A stretch of 64,000 bases of DNA. Origin: a virus. Its lineage: Duplodnaviria; Heunggongvirae; Uroviricota; Caudoviricetes. Under the pieces are notes generated by a model. The model was not told the origin of the DNA. It searched no databases and was given only the letters and a program-made list of their open reading frames with translations. The stretch lies in the IMG/VR virus record IMGVR_UViG_2667527592_000002; one strand, given 5' to 3'. A program made the position numbers and the translations under genes. Shown here piece by piece: positions 1,890 through 12,029 of this stretch. The number at the start of each line of letters is the position of its first letter. The first letter of the stretch is position 1.

Positions 1890-2282
1890 ATGGAACAAAT
1901 CAGCAGCGCAGAAATTGCGGATATCATGATCAGGGCTGACTGCTATCTGACAGTCACTGAAATTACCACTCTCGCCAAAGAAAAATACCCTCATCTCCAT
2001 GTTTCACGAGTAAGTGTAACTAACATCATTCGTCATTTTGTTCGTTCAAGCAGGGCAATCTGTGAGCTGGATGATCGTGTGTATCCACGAAAATACTGGC
2101 TACATGGTCTGAACGGATATCAGTTCAAGGTGCGCGGGCGCACGCCTGAATACGGTAGCTTACTGGTTAAAAACTGTAGCAGGAAATCAGTCGAACAGGC
2201 GCGAAAAGAGCAACGAGAGCTGGTGGACATGGCGAATAAGCTGTGGAATGCCGCCGTTAAAAAGCGTGGTGTTGCTTTATGA
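1890..2282 (+). CDS. hypothetical protein (130 aa)
   Basis: ORF track; stop overlaps pacA-like start (ATGA). Confidence 0.5.
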   Translation: MEQISSAEIADIMIRADCYLTVTEITTLAKEKYPHLHVSRVSVTNIIRHFVRSSRAICELDDRVYPRKYWLHGLNGYQFKVRGRTPEYGSLLVKNCSRKSVEQARKEQRELVDMANKLWNAAVKKRGVAL

Positions 2283-3643
2283 GTCTGGTTAATTGGGAGG
2301 AGCACCGCGCCCGCTTTATAGCGTTGCGTGAAGAAAAAGGGATCACTGTAAAGGAATACTGTGAGGAGCATGGCCTTAGCTTCAATACAGCCAGAAAGCA
2401 TCTCAATATGAAAAAAAATGAGGTGCGGTCGCAGGTAAAGACAACAAAAAAAAGCACCAAATCACCTGAAAAAAAACGGGCGGGAAGAGCAACAAAAAAG
2501 CTGGAAGAGGGTGCAGAAAAAACAAAATTTACAGAAATTGACAATTCGCAGGGTGCAGGTTCTTTCCGAAGTATGCCAAGAAAGAAAACTTCGGATCATG
2601 AAAGTAATTCCAATAATAACAATGAGATAAAAGAATCTGTCAGGAGATCATTGCGCGAAAAAATGGCGAAAATGATCCCCGAAGAAGATAAAAGCGCCCC
2701 AAAAATTGAGGGATCTTCAGCAATGATCCCTGGCGGTGCTGTGCAACGTGCCACATTGCCCACTACGAATGTGGCTCGCGACATGATGAAGAACGGCGCA
2801 GAAGAACACCTGCGGTTAGCAATTCAAATGGCGCAAGAGCGCGCACTTCAGTATCAAAGCATTGTTGATCAGGAGGCCGAACGTCTACAGGCGGAAATAG
2901 ACGCCTTGGGCGATAAAGAGCCAGAAGGAATGCACCCTGGGCAGCGCCTTCTCGGTCTAATCAGTGACGCGGCCTACTACATGAATGATTTTATCAGTAG
3001 GTTGGCAGCTATATATCAGTCCGAACAAAAGCTGCGACAGGGGGATGAAAAGCTTCGTCAGAGCGCTCGCCAGCAAGCATTCAAAGAGGCTGAGGCCAGA
3101 GAAAAACTCGAATTAGCACGCCTACAGGCCGAACAGCGTGGCAAAGAGATTGAATATCGCATTGGCGCTGACGCACGCGCTGCCAGAGTTATCGCCGCCG
3201 CTATACGTATGCGTGAGCGCGAGGAACTGGATGATATCGGTGTTGCTGAATACATCGAGCGCCAGGGGGTCAGCGTCCCGGCTATCCTCGCGGCGCGCGC
3301 GGCGAAAGCTATCACTCTTCTCGAACCACCTGTTTCTGACGTCAATGATGTTGATGATGAACAGCTGGACAAAGAGGCAAGGGAGTTTGCAACGCTTCAG
3401 GCTAACCATCCGCAATGGCTGGCAGAGCGCCGGGCGGATGTGGCAACCATTGTTGAAGAATTGGGGTGCGGAGATTACGACCGCAATGGCGAGCGTAAAG
3501 CTGGAGAATTCGAGGCCAGCGACGAAGAGCTGGATATTGACCCTTCGGCAACGGCTGAAATTTACGGTGATTATGATGCATCTGATGCAGGGTATGACGC
3601 CGGAGATGATGATATCGCGATAGAACCGCCGGAGGATGATTAA
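2279..3643 (+). CDS. putative terminase small subunit (PacA-like), acidic C-terminus
   Basis: Immediately upstream of and overlapping the large terminase; N-terminal HTH-like segment; internal GATC cluster; assignment by position, not by recognised sequence. Confidence 0.45.
   Translation: MSLVNWEEHRARFIALREEKGITVKEYCEEHGLSFNTARKHLNMKKNEVRSQVKTTKKSTKSPEKKRAGRATKKLEEGAEKTKFTEIDNSQGAGSFRSMPRKKTSDHESNSNNNNEIKESVRRSLREKMAKMIPEEDKSAPKIEGSSAMIPGGAVQRATLPTTNVARDMMKNGAEEHLRLAIQMAQERALQYQSIVDQEAERLQAEIDALGDKEPEGMHPGQRLLGLISDAAYYMNDFISRLAAIYQSEQKLRQGDEKLRQSARQQAFKEAEAREKLELARLQAEQRGKEIEYRIGADARAARVIAAAIRMREREELDDIGVAEYIERQGVSVPAILAARAAKAITLLEPPVSDVNDVDDEQLDKEAREFATLQANHPQWLAERRADVATIVEELGCGDYDRNGERKAGEFEASDEELDIDPSATAEIYGDYDASDAGYDAGDDDIAIEPPEDD
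2594..2728. other. GATC cluster (5 sites in 135 bp), candidate pac-type packaging site
   Basis: GATC at 2594, 2646, 2674, 2712, 2725, mostly as TGATC[CT] hexamers; P1 pac lies within pacA and is built from Dam-methylated TGATC[AG] hexamers. Confidence 0.35.
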
Positions 3644-5151
3644 TGGCTGGCGGGCGCAAGATTAAATGCGTCACCAGCGATCCACGCTGGCGCGATATGG
3701 TAATCAAATACCGCTACAACTTTACCCAGGCTGTTGTCGATATTTTTGGGATGTTCCCCTCCCACCAGCAGCAGCAGATCATTCAGTCAGTGCAGGAAAC
3801 GGGGAGTAGGACGACCGTCACGTCCGGACACGGAACGGGGAAGTCGTCCCTTACCGCGATGTTGCTGTTGATTTTTATGATCCTGTTCCCCGATGCCCGT
3901 GTCATCATTGTTGCTAACAAGATAGGCCAGGTAAAAACAGGCGTATTCAAATACGTTAAACAGTATTGGGCGAATGCAGTTAAGCGTCATGGGTGGTTGC
4001 AGACCTATTTTGTCCTCTCTGACACCATGTTTTATGAGCGCTCCCGTAAGGGGATTTGGGAAGTTCTCTGCAAAGGTTATCGACTCGGCAACGAAGAAGC
4101 GCTGGCGGGGGAACACGCGGCACATTTGCTTCTAATTCTGGACGAAGCATCTGGTATATCTGATAAGGCGATCGGCGTAATGACCGGTGCTCTTACTGAA
4201 GAAGATAACCGGATGTTGATGCTATCCCAGCCAACAAGGCCAAGTGGTTATTTCTACGATTCGCACCATTCTCAAGCAAAAACCCCAGACAACCCGAAAG
4301 GGATCTGGACAGCAATTGTTCTTAACTCGGAAGAATCACCGTTCGTCACACCACAATTCATCAAGCAGAAGCTTCTGGAATATGGCGGGCGCGATTCTAT
4401 TGAGTACATGGTCAAGGTGCTTGGTCAGTTCCCACGAGAAATTAACGGCTATTTGCTTGGTCGTGATGAATGCGATCGCGCTGCTCGCCGCAAGGTGTTG
4501 TTGGAGAAAAACTGGGGATGGGTGGCAACGGCTGACGTTGGTAATGGGCGAGATAAGTCGGTCCTCAACATCTGCAAAGTATCTGGTCACAGGGATAAGC
4601 GGCGCGTTGTTAACTTTAAGGTAATGGAGATGCCTGGCACTATGGACCCATTGGCCTTTGCTGACTTCATATATAACGAATGTACGCCGGAAAAATACCC
4701 GAATATAACAATCGCGGTTGATGCTGATGGTTTTGGTTCTGATACGTGTGCGCAGTTGGTGCGTCGTGGTGCGAACCCGGTACGTATTCGGTGGGGAAAA
4801 CCCATGTTTGCGAACAAAGACAGGGAGCGATTTGTTAATCAGCGTGCCTACGCAAATATTATGGCGCGTGATGCCATAAAGTCAGGGCGTATGCGGATAG
4901 ACAGTGACCCTAAAACGGCAGAGCAAGCGTCAAAAATCCCCTTTTTACTGAATGAAGAAGGGAAAATGGCGATGATGCGCAAAGAGCACATGCGGCAAAA
5001 GCTAAACATCAAATCGCCTGACCGATGGGATACCTACTGCTTCACTATGCTGGTGGACTATGTGCCTGCTAATGAAGATATTGGTGCCGAAATGGCAACT
5101 TTCCGAGATCAGGTTCTGGCGGATATCGAAATGCCGGATCTGGATATATAA
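3643..5151 (+). CDS. terminase large subunit (PacB-like)
   Basis: 502 aa; Walker A SGHGTGKS, Walker B LLLILDEAS, C-terminal acidic nuclease-like region; start overlaps pacA stop. Confidence 0.7.
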   Translation: MAGGRKIKCVTSDPRWRDMVIKYRYNFTQAVVDIFGMFPSHQQQQIIQSVQETGSRTTVTSGHGTGKSSLTAMLLLIFMILFPDARVIIVANKIGQVKTGVFKYVKQYWANAVKRHGWLQTYFVLSDTMFYERSRKGIWEVLCKGYRLGNEEALAGEHAAHLLLILDEASGISDKAIGVMTGALTEEDNRMLMLSQPTRPSGYFYDSHHSQAKTPDNPKGIWTAIVLNSEESPFVTPQFIKQKLLEYGGRDSIEYMVKVLGQFPREINGYLLGRDECDRAARRKVLLEKNWGWVATADVGNGRDKSVLNICKVSGHRDKRRVVNFKVMEMPGTMDPLAFADFIYNECTPEKYPNITIAVDADGFGSDTCAQLVRRGANPVRIRWGKPMFANKDRERFVNQRAYANIMARDAIKSGRMRIDSDPKTAEQASKIPFLLNEEGKMAMMRKEHMRQKLNIKSPDRWDTYCFTMLVDYVPANEDIGAEMATFRDQVLADIEMPDLDI

Positions 5152-5178: not shown

Positions 5179-6216
5179 TTACCAGAGCTTCGCGGCGTAC
5201 TGCGTTTGGGGGAATGTGTATCCGTAACGTTCTTCGATTGCTTTGCCGTATTTTTTACGAGCTTCATTCAGTTTAATGCCGGTCAGGTCGTCTCCAGAGG
5301 CCATCATTACCTCTAACAATTCCAGATCCATTTTATCCAGCCTTGCCATTGCTTCACGTGATGTACGTATCTTACGCTCAATGATATGGCGAATAGCCGG
5401 ATCGGCATCCTCCAGCATCTTAGCGGATTTCTGCTTAAGGCTTTCATTGCGAATATCGATGTTCCTTAAGATGTACGACTTCGCAACGTAGCTTGGCTGG
5501 TGTTTTTCCAGGTCACGAACACGATATAAGTTAAAATCGCCGAGAAGGCTGCAAGGTACCGATTCGACGCCAGAATAAATTGTAATGCTCCGGCGTTCAC
5601 CAACATTATTGACAACGGGGATCGTTGTCTTCGGTAGTCTTGCGAAAACCAATGCGCCATGTGCGCCAACTCTAAAGCGAGAAAGGGCATTGCTGCCTTC
5701 GATGTTTGTTGTCAGCACAACATCTGTATATGCCTCTTTACGCGCCCGGTAGATCTCGCCTTCAGGCTCAGCTTCAAAGAAGCGCTGTTCTTCTTCAAGA
5801 GCGCCTACGATTTGAGAAAAAACCCTATTTTTCAGGCTTTTCTTTATGATTTTGTCGTATTTTTTGAGCAATTGTTCACGTGTAAATGTACGTGTTGTTG
5901 TAGCGCTTTGCACAACAACATGCGTGCTTTGATTGGTGTCCTCAATGATGAATGGGATCGGAGAATATACAGACTCAACAATGTTCGACGCTTTGCCGTC
6001 GGCATCGCGGCACATGTCAACGAAGGCTTTCCATTCAGCAAGACATTTTTCAGCTTCTTCTAATATGTTTTGGTCATGCGTTAATGCAACATGGCGGAAT
6101 TCCTCGCCAGCATAACTGGTATCATGGAAAACAGAGTTTGCGACCACCAGCTCTTTCCACCGTTCAGCGGTTTGCAGGAACCGTTTGTACTCTTTCTCGA
6201 TCGACTTCTTACTCAT
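5179..6216 (-). CDS. hypothetical protein (345 aa); candidate lysogeny regulator by position
   Basis: ORF track; ATG with AGGA RBS; operator-like motif 16-33 bp upstream; sits between terminase and lox-cre. Confidence 0.55.
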   Translation of the reverse strand: MSKKSIEKEYKRFLQTAERWKELVVANSVFHDTSYAGEEFRHVALTHDQNILEEAEKCLAEWKAFVDMCRDADGKASNIVESVYSPIPFIIEDTNQSTHVVVQSATTTRTFTREQLLKKYDKIIKKSLKNRVFSQIVGALEEEQRFFEAEPEGEIYRARKEAYTDVVLTTNIEGSNALSRFRVGAHGALVFARLPKTTIPVVNNVGERRSITIYSGVESVPCSLLGDFNLYRVRDLEKHQPSYVAKSYILRNIDIRNESLKQKSAKMLEDADPAIRHIIERKIRTSREAMARLDKMDLELLEVMMASGDDLTGIKLNEARKKYGKAIEERYGYTFPQTQYAAKLW

Positions 6217-6249: not shown

Positions 6250-6425
6250 TTACTATGACAAATTTATGTCGAATAACAGAGTGAGTAAAGGATCGAACTG
6301 TGATTTTTTGTCATCAATTTTAGAAAACCAACCGTAGAAACCACACTTCGCAAATTAAAGACCATGAAGGCAACGTGTTACTGGTCATCATCAATCTATG
6401 ATGGATTTAAAAAAATCGGCATTTT

Positions 6426-6459
6426 ATAACTTTAAATAATTGGCATTATTTAAAGTTAG
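6426..6459. other. lox-like recombination site (13-bp inverted arms, 8-bp spacer)
   Basis: ATAACTTTAAATA-ATTGGCAT-TATTTAAAGTTAG; arms 12/13 complementary and about 10/13 identical to loxP arms; 150 bp upstream of cre-like gene. Confidence 0.7.
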
Positions 6460-6610
6460 GCTATAATCATGTGTAGATGAACAGTGTTGACATCACTGAA
6501 AATACGTGCCTCGAATCAAAGGCTTGTATTTTGAAAATTAACTTATAGCTACCCTGTCATTTTTATATTTTTCGCGTAGCGTCATCTGTATATAGAGGTG
6601 TAATAGTTTC

Positions 6611-7639
6611 ATGGGTGAATTAATTATCTCTGGCAGTTCCGGTGGTTTTCTGCGCAACATTGGCAAAGAGTACCAGGAAGCCGCAGAAAACTTTATGCGG
6701 TTCATGAATGACCAGGGGGCTTATGCGCCGAATACTCTGCGCGACCTCCGGTTGGTGTTTCATTCCTGGGCGCGCTGGTGTCACGCTCGCCAGCTTGCCT
6801 GGTTTCCGATCTCACCAGAAATGGCCCGCGAGTATTTTCTTCAGCTGCATGATGCCGATCTGGCTTCGACCACCATTGATAAGCACTACGCCATGCTGAA
6901 CATGCTGCTTTCGCATTGTGGCCTTCCGCCACTTTCGGATGATAAAAGTGTTTCTCTGGCTATGCGGCGCATCCGGCGCGAAGCAGCAACTGAAAAAGGC
7001 GAACGAACAGGCCAGGCTATACCGCTGCGGTGGGACGATCTGAAACTGCTCGACGTCCTGTTGTCCAGGTCAGAACGGCTGGTGGACCTGCGCAACCGGG
7101 CTTTTCTCTTTGTTGCATACAATACGCTGATGCGTATGTCGGAAATCTCGCGTATTCGTGTAGGAGATCTGGACCAGACAGGTGACACTGTCACGCTACA
7201 TATTTCACACACGAAGACAATAACGACCGCCGCCGGGCTTGATAAGGTGCTTTCCCGTCGCACTACCGCTGTGCTGAATGACTGGCTGGATGTTTCCGGG
7301 CTTCGCGAACATCCTGACGCAGTGCTGTTCCCGCCGATACACCGTAGCAATAAGGCCAGGATCACGACAACGCCCCTTACTGCACCTGCAATGGAGAAAA
7401 TATTCAGCGACGCCTGGGTGTTGCTGAATAAAAGAGATGCTACGCCAAACAAAGGAAGATACCGGACGTGGACCGGGCATAGTGCACGCGTCGGGGCCGC
7501 TATTGATATGGCTGAAAAGCAGGTGTCTATGGTGGAGATCATGCAGGAAGGAACCTGGAAGAAACCGGAAACACTTATGCGGTATCTTCGCCGTGGCGGC
7601 GTGTCTGTGGGGGCTAATAGCCGCCTGATGGATTCGTAA
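6611..7639 (+). CDS. cre: Cre-type tyrosine recombinase
   Basis: 342 aa; long collinear similarity to P1 Cre including GHSARVGAA...W...Y active-site region and NTLMRMSEISRIRVGD block. Confidence 0.9.
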   Translation: MGELIISGSSGGFLRNIGKEYQEAAENFMRFMNDQGAYAPNTLRDLRLVFHSWARWCHARQLAWFPISPEMAREYFLQLHDADLASTTIDKHYAMLNMLLSHCGLPPLSDDKSVSLAMRRIRREAATEKGERTGQAIPLRWDDLKLLDVLLSRSERLVDLRNRAFLFVAYNTLMRMSEISRIRVGDLDQTGDTVTLHISHTKTITTAAGLDKVLSRRTTAVLNDWLDVSGLREHPDAVLFPPIHRSNKARITTTPLTAPAMEKIFSDAWVLLNKRDATPNKGRYRTWTGHSARVGAAIDMAEKQVSMVEIMQEGTWKKPETLMRYLRRGGVSVGANSRLMDS

Positions 7640-8057: not shown

Positions 8058-8530
8058 AAACTTATTACCCATCTCTGAATTGTTACCCGTCTTCCTATCC
8101 AGAATTATCCGGGAAGCTGTTAGCTCTATTAGCTAAAGCACCTACGGAATGGTTTAAGCCAGTCGTTATCAATCCACACTTCCTGGATTACGGATCTGTT
8201 CGCACTCGTAACGAACTCAAAAACCTACTGGCGCATGGATTCATTCGACACCGTGCCGGGAAAGGCTATCAGTTAGCGATTGCGCCAGAAGAGGCCATGC
8301 GGCTATTCGCATATCGTGACAGCCAGACAAAAGCTCGGGTAATAGCTCAAATACTTCATAACGGCAGCACCTATGCCCGCCAGTTTGGCGGCGACACGTC
8401 GCAGTTCTTGCGGGCGGTGCGATCGCTGGAGGAGCAAGGAGTTATTGAAAGTTCCTGTCTTCCTGTTCCTACCGTTCCACATATCAAACGTCGGGTTTAC
8501 ACCTTCACGCAGAGAGCTAAAAAACAATGA
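8054..8530 (+). CDS. hypothetical protein (158 aa)
   Basis: ORF track; GTG start overlapping upstream stop. Confidence 0.45.
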   Translation: MKTYYPSLNCYPSSYPELSGKLLALLAKAPTEWFKPVVINPHFLDYGSVRTRNELKNLLAHGFIRHRAGKGYQLAIAPEEAMRLFAYRDSQTKARVIAQILHNGSTYARQFGGDTSQFLRAVRSLEEQGVIESSCLPVPTVPHIKRRVYTFTQRAKKQ

Positions 8531-9021
8531 TTTACGTAAAAGTGAAACGCCTACATCCGGCAGCAAAACTTCCAGCTTATGCCACCTCCGGATCGGCGGC
8601 GATGGATTTTGAGGCTGTTGAAATAACACCATGCGTCGATAGCAATGGTGAAATTTCCTCAAGCTGGTGGGTGCATACCGGACTGGCTATGGAGATCCCG
8701 CCCGGCTGGTGTCTGAAACTCTATCCGCGATCCGGATTGGGCTGCAAAAAACATACTCGCCTGGCTAACTGCGTAGGAATTATCGACTCCGATTATCGCG
8801 GTGAAATCATGGCAAAACTGATTACTGATCCCGGCGGGGAAGGCGTTTGTCTCAAGCCTGGAATGGCTGTCATGCAAGGCATTTTTGAGCGTGTTGAACA
8901 AGTCTCACTAGTCGAGGTTGAGGAACTCAACGAAACGGAACGTGGTGCTGGTGGCTTTGGTAGCACATCGGAAGGCCACTTTGAAATTAAGCGTTCACCG
9001 CTTCAGTACGAAAAGTTATAA
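8527..9021 (+). CDS. dut: dUTP diphosphatase (dUTPase)
   Basis: 164 aa; motifs GIIDSDYRGE and RG(A)GGFGSTS typical of trimeric dUTPases; ATGA overlap with upstream gene. Confidence 0.85.
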   Translation: MIYVKVKRLHPAAKLPAYATSGSAAMDFEAVEITPCVDSNGEISSSWWVHTGLAMEIPPGWCLKLYPRSGLGCKKHTRLANCVGIIDSDYRGEIMAKLITDPGGEGVCLKPGMAVMQGIFERVEQVSLVEVEELNETERGAGGFGSTSEGHFEIKRSPLQYEKL

Positions 9022-9035
9022 GCAGAGAAAAGACT

Positions 9036-9713
9036 ATGAATAACATGACAACGAAAGAGCTTTTGACGGCACTTCCAAAATACAAAAGCCATAAAACAGT
9101 TCGTGCCTCAAAAATCAAAGATATCGAAATTATCGCCCTAATGGATGTGGTCCTTCTTTGCAACATCGAAGTCGTTGAGCCAGAAGGGGTAAAAGTCCAT
9201 GTTGATAAAATGTTTTTGCAAAAACACCGACCAGAAATTGGCGGATATCTGGTCGCTTATGAGGACGGATCTCTGTCCTATTCACCAGAAAAAACATTTG
9301 AAGAAGGCTTTAGTCGGACTAACGACTTCTTCGAAAATGGGGCATTGCTCAGCATTGAAGGTCACAATGGGGTGACATTCATTACAGCCAGGGACGTAAC
9401 TATTTCTGCTGGCGGTATCGCTACTCTACAAGAAGAAATCGACCTTGAAGCAGCCGACTTTTCTGACGCGCTGATGTGGCTGAAGGATGGCAAGAAAGTT
9501 GCTCGACGCGGGTGGAACGGCGAAAACCAATTCTGCTGGCTGGTTCCTGAAGGACAGTACCCGGCACGAATGGAAGCCATTAAGGGATATTTCCCCGGCG
9601 ACCTCGTTCCGTATGGTGCTTATTTCGCCTTAAAAAATGCACAAGGTGTAGTTGTTCCGTGGGTTCCTTCTGTAGGCGACTTACTGGCATGTGACTGGTT
9701 TGTAGTGGAGTAA
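9036..9713 (+). CDS. DUF2829-domain protein (Tad2-like C-terminal domain) with extra N-terminal domain
   Basis: C-terminal ALMWLKDGKKVARRGWNG ... DLLACDWFVVE matches the DUF2829 hallmark as I recall it; N-terminal 140 aa unassigned. Confidence 0.6.
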   Translation: MNNMTTKELLTALPKYKSHKTVRASKIKDIEIIALMDVVLLCNIEVVEPEGVKVHVDKMFLQKHRPEIGGYLVAYEDGSLSYSPEKTFEEGFSRTNDFFENGALLSIEGHNGVTFITARDVTISAGGIATLQEEIDLEAADFSDALMWLKDGKKVARRGWNGENQFCWLVPEGQYPARMEAIKGYFPGDLVPYGAYFALKNAQGVVVPWVPSVGDLLACDWFVVE

Positions 9714-9719
9714 TTTGAC

Positions 9720-10526
9720 ATGGAAAGCACCAAAACAATTCAATACCGCTTGCGTAATGGCCTGCTGGTGGCTGTTAACGCCGACATGTCACTGCCGTTT
9801 GACACGATTGAACGCACTATCATGACGTATCTCGGCTTTAATGAAGAACTGAATGAAGAGCATGGCGTAGCTATATGGAGTGATGCAGACAGCGGCGTTC
9901 GTCGTTACATCACCGCCAGGGGCAAAGACTACTCTCTGGAAGAACTGTTTGCCCTTGCGCAGTCTTTCGAATGTGTAGCATTAGACCTGTTTAATGATCC
10001 TGCTATAGCGCAACGACTTATACGCGAGCTTGGGCTATCCGTTACACCAATTATCTTTAAAAATGGCAGCCTGACTGGCACATGGCGCGTAGAACGCATC
10101 TCAAACTACCTTCCATATAACCGACAGTTAAATGGAGTAATCTCCGGCGTTAATCAGCCCGTAGCGTGTGAAAATGTAAATCTGGTTGTCGCTGTTTTGG
10201 CAACCGCATGTCGTGTTATCGGTTTGGCTAAACAGGCATTTATTCATTTCCCAAATGGTGCAGAAGGTAGCGCAGAGATTATCGCGTGTGATTTCGAATT
10301 TACCTGGATGCTACGCGAATATCTGGACCAAACAGTGTTCCGCGCCGAAGAACTGGATATGTATATCACGTCAACGATTCCTGATGATGTGCGTGCTGAA
10401 GCAATCGCCACAGCAAGGGCCAAATGCCGTGCGGCGATTGCAGAACAGGCCAAAGAAGAACAGTCCGATGAAGTCGCGGCAGATGTGGAGGCAGAGGTAG
10501 CGGAGGATGCTGATGCTGACGCCTAA
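9720..10526 (+). CDS. hypothetical protein, acidic C-terminus (268 aa)
   Basis: ORF track; GGAG RBS. Confidence 0.5.
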   Translation: MESTKTIQYRLRNGLLVAVNADMSLPFDTIERTIMTYLGFNEELNEEHGVAIWSDADSGVRRYITARGKDYSLEELFALAQSFECVALDLFNDPAIAQRLIRELGLSVTPIIFKNGSLTGTWRVERISNYLPYNRQLNGVISGVNQPVACENVNLVVAVLATACRVIGLAKQAFIHFPNGAEGSAEIIACDFEFTWMLREYLDQTVFRAEELDMYITSTIPDDVRAEAIATARAKCRAAIAEQAKEEQSDEVAADVEAEVAEDADADA

Positions 10527-11613
10527 AAACATCACCGAATTACCAGAGTGGAGAGAGCTGGTAAGCAAATATAGCCATGACTGGGCATTAGCAGCAGAAG
10601 AGTTGATGGGTGTTAAGTTAACCCACCAGCAAAAGCTAATTGTTGAGGCGATTCAACAAAAAGGTTCAGCAGTCAGCGTCACCACTCCTGAAGGGATAGG
10701 CCAAAAGACGGTTATCGCTATAATTAGTATTCTTTATACAATCCTGATGCCTGAGTCTAAAACGGTTATTGTTTCCCCAAAGTTCTATAATTGTCGCAGG
10801 CAAGTTATCCAATACATAAGTACGTATTGGGATAGAGTCAGTAACAGAATCCCATTGCTGGGAGAATATTTTAAAGTCGATGGAAACGGCATCAATCATC
10901 GTTACCGGGAATATTGGGGCTGCGAAATTAAGCCATATCACCGAAATTATGAGGAAGGTTTCGGTGGATATTATGCTGAACATCTTTTAATCATTGTTAC
11001 GGAGGCGGCTCTTGCTGGCGATCGGCTATTCAGCATGTTAAGAGCATCGTTAGTAAGTGACGATTCACGTATACTTTTAATGTCCGCTCCTTCAGAGGAG
11101 GAGCATGGACACTTTTACGATTCCCATCATGGTCGTGCTAAATCAGAAGAAAATCCATGTGGTATTTATACAGCCATCAAGCTGAACGCAGAAGATACCC
11201 CCATTATTTCTCAAGGTTATCTTGATAACATTGCAGAAATATATGGTGGTAAAAACAGCGATTACTACCGTCGTATGGTTCTTGGTGAGTTTCCTGGTAT
11301 TAGGGGGGCTGTTCTTGAATCAGATATGCCGAAGACAATGCGCTTTTCGATGCCTGATGGTAGTGAATGGATAATGCCATTACGAGTGATAGCCCGGCAT
11401 CATGCACAGCACCACGCCAAAAAACATGGCGTTACAACATTGGAGTGGTTGAAATCGCACACCATTCCACTCTTCACTGCAGATCACAATGCTATCGTTG
11501 AGTGGGCAAAAACAATTCCGTGGGAGAATGTTGCTGAATACGCCCACATGCTAAAACCGCCGAAAGACAGGCAAGAAATTAGCTGGCTGACAGCAGAAAA
11601 AATCATTGAGTGA
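10507..11613 (+). CDS. terminase-large-subunit-like ATPase-domain paralogue with degenerate Walker motifs, no nuclease domain
   Basis: 368 aa; collinear blocks shared with 3643..5151 (HLLII.TEA, RILLMS.P, GHFYDSHH, YGG, GEFP); Walker A GIGQKT, Walker B IVTE. Confidence 0.6.
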   Translation: MLMLTPKNITELPEWRELVSKYSHDWALAAEELMGVKLTHQQKLIVEAIQQKGSAVSVTTPEGIGQKTVIAIISILYTILMPESKTVIVSPKFYNCRRQVIQYISTYWDRVSNRIPLLGEYFKVDGNGINHRYREYWGCEIKPYHRNYEEGFGGYYAEHLLIIVTEAALAGDRLFSMLRASLVSDDSRILLMSAPSEEEHGHFYDSHHGRAKSEENPCGIYTAIKLNAEDTPIISQGYLDNIAEIYGGKNSDYYRRMVLGEFPGIRGAVLESDMPKTMRFSMPDGSEWIMPLRVIARHHAQHHAKKHGVTTLEWLKSHTIPLFTADHNAIVEWAKTIPWENVAEYAHMLKPPKDRQEISWLTAEKIIE

Positions 11614-11648
11614 TAGTAGGAAGCCCGCCTGGTTGAGCGGGCTTCTTT

Positions 11649-12029
11649 TCAAATATTGGAACCATATAGTTCACGTAGTTTTTCCGCTACTGAAGATACG
11701 GGGATTTCACCAGTTGCAGCCCCCACCGCAAGTTCCACCAGCACGGGAGAATCATATACCTGTATACCGTTACGGCGTAGAAATAGCAGCGCACTGTTTA
11801 GCGCGGTACGCTTATTGGCATCATTGAATATATGCCCTCTCGCAGTAGCCACCAGGTAGGTTGCGGAGACTTCGAAAAGGTCGGTGATCTCTTCGTAGGC
11901 AACTCTGGCCTGAACTCTCCCGATAATGGCCTCTGCCCTACCCGGATCTGACATTCCCGGCAGGCCGCCGTAGCGGCTTATATTCGCATCATGAAGCGCA
12001 ATAAGTTCTTCCGGTGATATATGCCTCAT
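11649..12029 (-). CDS. doc: Doc toxin (Fic-family kinase), phd-doc addiction module
   Basis: 126 aa, near-identical to P1 Doc as I recall it ([22 protein letters not shown]... [11 protein letters not shown]). Confidence 0.95.

Follow-up and report, generated by a model that had tools for sequence, protein, structure and literature searches.

Why would a phage-plasmid that encodes a functional large terminase carry a second gene from the same protein family? The question is posed by a 64,000-nt stretch of viral DNA (Caudoviricetes; IMG/VR record IMGVR_UViG_2667527592_000002), which we refer to at its full length as the window and whose region considered here matches Escherichia phage D6, itself a phage-plasmid of the P1 family, at ~95% identity. 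The functional large terminase gene, pacB (3643..5151; features are on the plus strand unless stated otherwise), represents the parent family of a gene at 10513..11613 (beginning at 10507 if an upstream ATG is used). The distance between the two is 5.4 kb, in line with the 5 kb estimated in an earlier reading made from the letters alone (the sequence-only reading). The product of the second gene, the PacB paralogue, is a non-catalytic accessory paralogue of the terminase ATPase, to which an orphan domain is fused. Literature searches found no paper on this protein.

No proteins of tailed phages are more conserved than terminases, whose ATPase domain is recognised directly by several immune sensors of bacteria. 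A selectively maintained dead copy would therefore be a ready-made probe. The carriers of this copy are widespread phage-plasmids of E. coli, Salmonella, and Shigella.

The ATPase-like domain and its catalytic motifs

In BLASTP, 269 amino acids (aa) of the paralogue align with PacB of the window with three gaps, 34% of positions being identical and 59% positive (E=1e-52, far from a chance match), and against PacB proteins generally the ATPase domain gave 34-36% identity with E values of about 1e-47 to 1e-52. The six motif pairs by which the sequence-only reading had linked the two proteins are all present as quoted. The similarity ends at ~aa 271, and the last ~100 aa of the paralogue are unlike PacB. 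Over its full length the paralogue matches phrog_5902, a PHROG family of unannotated phage proteins (E=1.2e-132, profile positions 3-358 of 359). Both proteins match phrog_5902 and also phrog_2, "terminase large subunit", where the match of the paralogue is the weaker one. Its predicted structure is a confident model that retains the terminase-type ASCE P-loop ATPase (TerL) fold. Membership in an unrelated P-loop family was considered and is rejected by the profile and fold results, both of which point to terminase. Pfam and NCBIfam returned no useful match for the paralogue, its C-terminal domain, or IsaA, the product of the gene directly upstream, and a sequence search of solved structures gave no meaningful match.

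What, then, has become of the catalytic residues? We aligned nine paralogue sequences, comprising six distinct alleles and including one truncated by an insertion sequence (IS) and one permuted fragment, with nine PacB orthologues. The TerL/PacB-type ATPase-fold domain, which appears non-catalytic, spans aa 1-268 (10507..11310). Its Walker A motif (aa 60-68, TTPEGIGQKT; 10684..10710) is degenerate, reading T60-T-P-E-G-I-G-Q-K-T68 where PacB has S-G-H-G-T-G-K-S, with Gln in register with the PacB Lys. Walker B (aa 160-166, LLIIVTE; 10984..11004) is degenerate as well, reading L-L-I-I-V-T165-E166 against L-L-I-L-D-E in PacB, with Thr in place of Asp. All nine PacB orthologues contain SGHGTGKS, (I/L/V)DEASG, and three acidic nuclease motifs (DV..GNGRDKS, D.DG.G, and SPDxWDT), and these nuclease motifs have no counterpart in the aligned paralogues.

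The replacements differ from one allele to the next. At Walker A the six alleles read GIGQKT, GIGHKS, GIGRPQ, GVGTTT, GTGTTT, and GIGETS, so that the position of the Lys is occupied by Q, H, R, T, or E, and the Walker B Asp-Glu pair is represented by TE, AE, MD, VD, LN, or IN. Such varied substitutions are the pattern expected where catalysis was lost. The window allele has a Lys one position downstream and keeps the Walker B Glu, and neither is conserved across the paralogue family. Proper alignment thus bears out the sequence-only reading on both Walker motifs and on the absence of acidic nuclease motifs from the C-terminus; the catalytic residues are neither intact nor conserved among the paralogues. 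Judged from these alignments, the terminase ATPase fold stays and its chemistry is gone, the residues for nucleotide binding and hydrolysis having decayed.

The best-conserved part of the ATPase-like domain is the lid-type subdomain (aa 201-268; 11107..11310), as seen in the conservation map and the alignment. It shares with PacB the motifs FYDSHH (11113-11130), NPxGxxxAIxLNxExxP, YGG, and GxFP, the first of which is invariant in all aligned paralogues. The N-terminal helices are also common to PacB and the paralogue. Although it is a member of phrog_5902, the paralogue is not a terminase when judged by the features of that enzyme: it has the fold, and the other four of the five features (Walker A, Walker B, the nuclease, and an indispensable place in the packaging module) are absent.

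A C-terminal domain of wide distribution

In place of the RNase-H-like nuclease domain, the paralogue carries a C-terminal alpha/beta domain of ~95 aa (MPDGSxW..VIAxxHA..W..W; 11320..11610), hereafter the C-domain. With residues ~272-368 as the query, 192 clusters were recovered at E<=1e-3 among 1.8 billion representatives, mostly stand-alone proteins of ~100 aa. The family follows the pattern MPDGSxWxVP...IAxxRA...W...W with near-invariant W, P, A, T, and F columns, and the paralogue conforms to it. The domain forms the C-terminus of phrog_17928 and is also matched by the C-terminal part of the phrog_5902 profile. Folded in isolation it is predicted with a mean confidence score (pLDDT) of 91.7. 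No Pfam or NCBIfam model covers the C-domain, no solved structure matches it, and its matches in BFVD are confined to members of its own family. The paralogue therefore exposes a widespread phage domain that has neither a family annotation nor a solved-structure match.

Where the C-domain occurs elsewhere, its neighbours are often genes of DNA metabolism. In Xanthomonas phage CP2 it forms the C-terminus of ORF36, adjoining Erf, exonuclease, and SSB genes; in Bordetella phage PHB04 a C-domain protein adjoins RecE; and in the P1-like Cronobacter phage JK004 a stand-alone C-domain lies just 3' of a DnaB-type helicase gene. The same post-DnaB slot is taken in a related locus (L008) by a fused paralogue that is 38% identical to that of the window. 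The fusion partners that could be recognised in a set of 48 longer relatives are DUF1351 (2), Phage_gp49_66 (1), and a Lar restriction-alleviation domain (1). The C-terminus is thus a distinct, conserved, and widespread domain, common in early, replication, and recombination regions of phages, and it had been overlooked in the sequence-only reading.

A permuted in-frame fusion was seen on a contig of GCA_024867085.4 (L018 6001-6741), with the C-domain first, followed by the N-terminus of the dead ATPase with GSGTGTTT at its Walker A. This copy ends after ~147 aa at GC-rich foreign DNA, an insertion, and an AbiH-family gene and a RecA-dependent nuclease gene lie nearby.

Selection and allelic exchange

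If the catalytic residues are lost, is the gene simply decaying? Alleles at 88, 81, 65, 49, and 38% identity all keep an intact open reading frame (ORF), and the ratio of nonsynonymous to synonymous substitution rates (dN/dS, Nei-Gojobori) is 0.2-0.5, with segment values of 0.08-0.51, always below 1. The most constrained part is the C-domain (dN/dS 0.08-0.34). A frameshifted pseudogene or remnant, a possibility that the sequence-only reading had allowed for, is rejected by the ORFs, intact down to 38% identity, and by dN/dS. The paralogue is a living, selectively maintained gene.

The constraint is nevertheless weak when set against that on the terminase. We compared dN/dS gene by gene between the window and one E. 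marmotae plasmid, which gave 0.043 for PacB, 0.045 for the Dre recombinase, 0.11 for IsaA, 0.12 for PacA, 0.45 for the paralogue, and 0.46 for the product of a Tad2-like gene. Constraint on the paralogue is ten times weaker than on PacB and matches that on the adjacent Tad2-like gene.

Variation is unevenly spread along the paralogue. Segment identities, sliding identity (window versus L004, L006, and L001), and synonymous divergence by segment (dS) delimit a variable core cassette at aa 61-200 (10687..11106). This former catalytic core, which recombination has exchanged among nearly identical backbones, is the least conserved segment among the alleles; conservation is highest in the lid-type subdomain and the C-domain. 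Over ~6 kb, plasmid CP076307 shares 98-100% identity with the window except in two places, the Tad2-like gene and the interval from the tail of IsaA to ~aa 265 of the paralogue. Since its PacB is 100% and its PacA 98.8% identical to those of the window, variation in the paralogue does not track the terminase. Between the window and CP076307, dS is 2.1 in the paralogue core and 0.10 in the C-domain, which indicates that a divergent allele was imported and did not drift in place. Across comparisons, dS in the core is 0.43-2.1, against 0.05-0.10 in the flanking segments; a further, independent core swap is seen relative to the E. marmotae plasmid and a weaker one among P1-type alleles.

Two neighbouring sequences vary in a similar way. 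The C-terminal acidic tail of IsaA (…EEQSDEVAADVEAEVAEDADAD; window 10401-10526) diverges together with the N-terminal domain of the paralogue, the rest of IsaA being 99% identical, and this co-divergence places a recombination boundary inside isaA. The Tad2-like gene shows 54-87% DNA identity within a backbone that is otherwise 98-100% identical, and D6 lacks its N-terminal half.

Distribution among P1/D6-type phage-plasmids

Is the paralogue a regular component of these elements? Phage D6 itself lacks it, and its isaA runs straight into pdcA. It is likewise absent from D6-like relatives in Klebsiella and Enterobacter, whose recombinase operon keeps the Tad2-like and IsaA pair at its end. In reference P1 (L003, NC_005856 22533-24243), IS1 and isaB occupy the exact slot that the paralogue holds in IS1-free P1 relatives (L005 3971-5098), with homology breaking at the end of isaA and resuming at hxr. 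Many natural relatives thus have a gene that is missing from the laboratory genome of P1. We considered P1 isaB as a remnant of the paralogue and rejected this, as the two have no similarity; isaB is an allelic replacement that came together with IS1. In E. albertii plasmid pEA36_1 (L007 3971-6305), an IS911-family element interrupts the paralogue near its 3' end, and the last ~32 codons are detectable downstream.

A survey of related phage-plasmids, as the sequence-only reading had proposed, found a near full-length paralogue in 163 of the 790 PLSDB records that were matched through PacB or the paralogue. Its DNA was matched in 92 of 5426 complete E. coli genomes, on plasmids in every case and in one copy each. 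The slot of isaA-IS1-isaB is known to vary among P1-like elements and to carry accessory cargo (PMC9603915, PMC6906374), and P1 isaA and isaB are non-essential by CRISPR interference (PMC10695390). The paralogue is optional mosaic cargo of P1/D6-type phage-plasmids, a point that the sequence-only reading had likewise missed, and its core is exchanged independently of PacA and PacB.

Databases label the protein "hypothetical protein" or, in MH422554, "terminase large subunit". The latter record annotates a paralogue that lacks the nuclease and the Walker motifs (MH422554.1 16006-17100; L002 5971-7065) and so seems to hold two large terminases. The wrong label is a trap for terminase-based phage typing, which it can mislead.

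Proposed function as a terminase mimic

A protein with no capacity to translocate or cut DNA would have to act by binding. The paralogue, being optional, fast-evolving, and encoded beside an anti-defence gene, probably acts by binding rather than in DNA packaging. The sequence-only reading had offered three roles, namely modulation of packaging, a decoy against terminase-targeting defence, and a remnant co-opted for another purpose. Population-level allele exchange limited to two neighbouring genes, ten-fold relaxed constraint, and patchy presence are together typical of conflict genes and not of housekeeping genes, and the evidence leans toward a role of the conflict or decoy type. The Lar fusion found in one of the 48 longer C-domain relatives and the equal evolutionary rate of the Tad2-like neighbour are context that favours a decoy.

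We suggest, at a probability of roughly 0.3, that the paralogue mimics the ATPase domain of the terminase and thereby blunts terminase-sensing immunity. Under this proposal the paralogue would most likely be made before the late-expressed PacB and would occupy host sensors of the TerL ATPase domain (Avs1-3 and Upx). It would bring with it no bound ATP, which these sensors use, so that abortive-infection immunity would be blunted, and the fused C-domain may add a further binding or blocking surface. A more specific form of the idea is also more doubtful: that the paralogue is a viral ATPase-domain mimic serving as an immune antagonist, which plugs the pockets of Avs1-3 and Upx, permits no oligomerisation for want of ATP, and has a variable core that tracks sensor diversity. 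To our knowledge, an immune decoy built from the very protein that is sensed would be the first of its kind. If binding to sensors is correct, it would show a phage countering pattern recognition of a protein that it cannot mutate.

The proposal draws on a 2026 study reporting that the TerL ATPase domain by itself suffices to activate the E. coli sensors EcAvs2 and Upx, that the EcAvs2 interface uses terminase-bound ATP and a bridging ATP, and that phage proteins resembling the TerL ATPase (T4 vs.8 and Ksap1/2) are possible anti-defence proteins (PMC13601566). Several points weigh against it. The same vs.8 and Ksap1/2 trigger Avs2 and do not inhibit it (PMC13601566). The lost ATP binding might just as well be plain escape from the sensors, with no decoy role, and the placing of the best PacB-shared motifs in the lid-type subdomain fits equally well a binding partner that PacB also has (PacA, the portal, or PacB itself, for instance). 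The occurrence of the C-domain beside DnaB, Erf, RecE, and SSB genes hints as much at DNA metabolism as at immunity. With an overall dN/dS below 1, positive selection on the paralogue is not demonstrated. PADLOC gave no match at E<=1 for the paralogue, the C-domain, or IsaA, and a consensus search for P1 C1 operators found no site in the window.

What else could such a protein do? It is possible, if doubtful, that the dead ATPase works as a modulator of packaging, joining or capping PacA-PacB or the portal through PacB-derived surfaces (the N-terminal helices and lid-type subdomain) and so tuning or delaying pac cleavage and packaging. The lid-type motifs, with their invariant FYDSHH, are the segments best kept both between PacB and the paralogue and within the paralogues, the fold appears fully preserved in the model, and catalytically dead subunits poison or regulate ring ATPases. 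If the partner is indeed PacA, PacB, or the portal, the paralogue would offer a natural dominant-negative tool for a packaging motor that has no solved structure. However, ~80% of the related phage-plasmids on record lack it and still package DNA, its core varies freely while PacB is 100% and PacA 98.8% identical, and it sits beyond the packaging module, among accessory genes, under a constraint ten times weaker than that on PacB. The patchy distribution, the cassette-like exchange of the core, and the location in a cargo hot spot, with accessory cargo known from P1-like variable regions (PMC9603915, PMC6906374), would also suit a weapon between elements. Here the paralogue of a resident would co-assemble with, or titrate the partners of, the terminase of a superinfecting or co-resident P1-family phage or satellite and block its packaging, the core alleles setting the targets. 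We regard this as unlikely: an identity of only ~34-36% to any PacB makes co-assembly doubtful, no effector or toxin domain is recognisable and PADLOC has no match, and the operon is shared with a Tad2-like gene, a counter-defence function of the infection phase.

Quite unlikely, too, is a role as an accessory of replication or recombination, in which the C-domain does the work by binding either a DNA intermediate or a protein of replication or recombination, and the dead ATPase is a scaffold that binds DNA or protein. The neighbours of the C-domain in CP2, PHB04, and JK004, the L008 paralogue in the DnaB slot, the position of the paralogue after ssb-isaA in P1-type elements, the strong constraint on the C-domain, and the permuted fusion with the C-domain first all accord with it. 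Yet small early-region genes by recombination modules are also typically genes of host takeover or anti-defence, and one C-domain relative is fused to Lar; the C-domain fold matches no DNA-binding or other solved fold, and selection on the terminase ATPase fold would be left unexplained. That the window allele is still an enzyme, its shifted Lys67-Thr68 and retained Glu166 forming a non-canonical but working nucleotide site, is very improbable. The downstream Lys is held by this allele and its two closest relatives (GIGQKT, GIGHKS), and a Gln upstream of the P-loop is conserved, but neither the Lys nor the Glu is kept across the family (GIGRPQ, GVGTTT, and GIGETS at Walker A; VD, LN, and IN at Walker B), the Walker B Asp is gone from the window allele itself, and the core is the least constrained segment. 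Least credible of all is that the gene is a functionless remnant left by duplication of pacB and now being lost. The gene is dispensable, missing from many relatives or replaced there, and interrupted by an IS in one, as such a remnant might be, but its ORF is intact over the whole range of identities, dN/dS is 0.08-0.51 in every segment, and it has precise signals for translational coupling, a terminator, and a confident structure model.

Comparison with known systems

PacB, the pacase B subunit of P1 and D6, shares with the paralogue a common ancestry, the TerL ATPase fold, the N-terminal helices, the lid-type motifs, and membership in phrog_5902. In contrast to PacB, the paralogue lacks the Walker A Lys, the Walker B Asp-Glu pair, and the nuclease, and has the orphan domain instead; its gene lies away from pacA, is optional, and evolves at a dN/dS of 0.45 versus 0.043.

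For the proposed terminase mimic, the nearest conceptual relative is T4 vs.8, described as a phage accessory homologue of the terminase ATPase domain that is without a nuclease and confined to one phage lineage (PMC13601566). Unlike the paralogue, which has lost both Walker motifs and gained the C-domain, vs.8 keeps Walker A and B and activates EcAvs2 (PMC13601566). Ksap1 and Ksap2 are likewise described as small accessory phage proteins with a TerL-ATPase-like core that meet a terminase sensor, but they are known triggers and not inhibitors, and they occur in Dhillonvirus and Stephanstirmvirinae (PMC13601566). A tblastn search of a phage collection with the paralogue had no T4-like record among the 40 matches listed.

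The clamp-loader subunits delta and delta' and the Rad51 paralogues keep a P-loop fold after catalytic loss, with the role shifted to binding or regulation. These are core, universally retained subunits, whereas the paralogue is optional mosaic cargo. SaPI Ppi is a small satellite-encoded protein that interferes with packaging by binding terminase subunits. It may resemble the paralogue in acting on a terminase by binding alone, and differs from it in not being a TerL homologue and in being encoded by a parasite and not by the phage itself.

Gene model and neighbourhood

The sequence-only reading had placed the gene at 10507-11613 with a product of 368 aa. The ORF stands as described, running from ATG 10507 on the plus strand to a stop codon at 11611-11613, but the start does not: ATG 10513 is likelier, giving 366 aa (MLTPKN...), since a Shine-Dalgarno-like GGAGG read from the sequence (10502..10506) lies 6 nt 5' of it and database models begin at MLTPKN. 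From this start the gene overlaps the end of isaA (TAA 10524-10526) by 14 nt (10513..10526), an overlap annotated likewise in L002, L004, L005, and L006, which suggests translational coupling. A terminator-like hairpin with a T-run, found by scan and in the sequence, lies at 11627..11650, between the paralogue and a convergent doc homologue (11649..12029). The genes downstream are convergent and of the pdcA/doc/phd type, and D6 also has a pdcA-like gene at this place.

Directly before pacB lies pacA (2279..3643), the small terminase or pac-recognition subunit (phrog_1711 "terminase", 5.7e-183; "DNA pacase A subunit" in relatives). The minus strand after pacB encodes a C1-type repressor (5179..6216). 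The paralogue is the final gene of a compact plus-strand series consisting of the Cre/Dre-type recombinase gene (Dre, 6611..7639), two small ORFs, a dUTPase gene (8527..9021), the Tad2-like gene, isaA, and the paralogue itself. The Tad2-like (DUF2829) gene (9036..9713) encodes 225 aa with a Tad2 domain at aa 141-224 (Pfam PF11195, 1.6e-22). The isaA homologue (9720..10526; 268 aa) is assigned by 48% identity to P1 IsaA, phrog_2326, and synteny, and isaA lies directly upstream of the paralogue in every P1- or D6-type copy examined. The idea that IsaA is a paralogue of PacA was rejected, as BLASTP gave no match between them, and the pair is thus not a second small and large terminase. IsaA also has no detectable homology to anything annotated, and its homologues have neither names nor domains.

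Around these slots, related phage-plasmid contigs carry other cargo of the counter-defence or defence type (L008 3869-4261 and 16407-17098; L014-L017), namely a gene with a Sequestin domain, Tad2-like genes, and toxin-antitoxin pairs (HigB/HicAB). At 6420-6470, 5' of the recombinase gene, lies an inverted repeat, TAACTTTAAATAAT-TGGCATT-ATTTAAAGTTA. The repeat resembles rox, the site of the Dre recombinase of D6, and the D6 record has "rox" at the equivalent position. The putative rox is overlapped by TTGGCA-16-TATAAT at 6440-6467, the sole strong sigma-70-like promoter match in the region.

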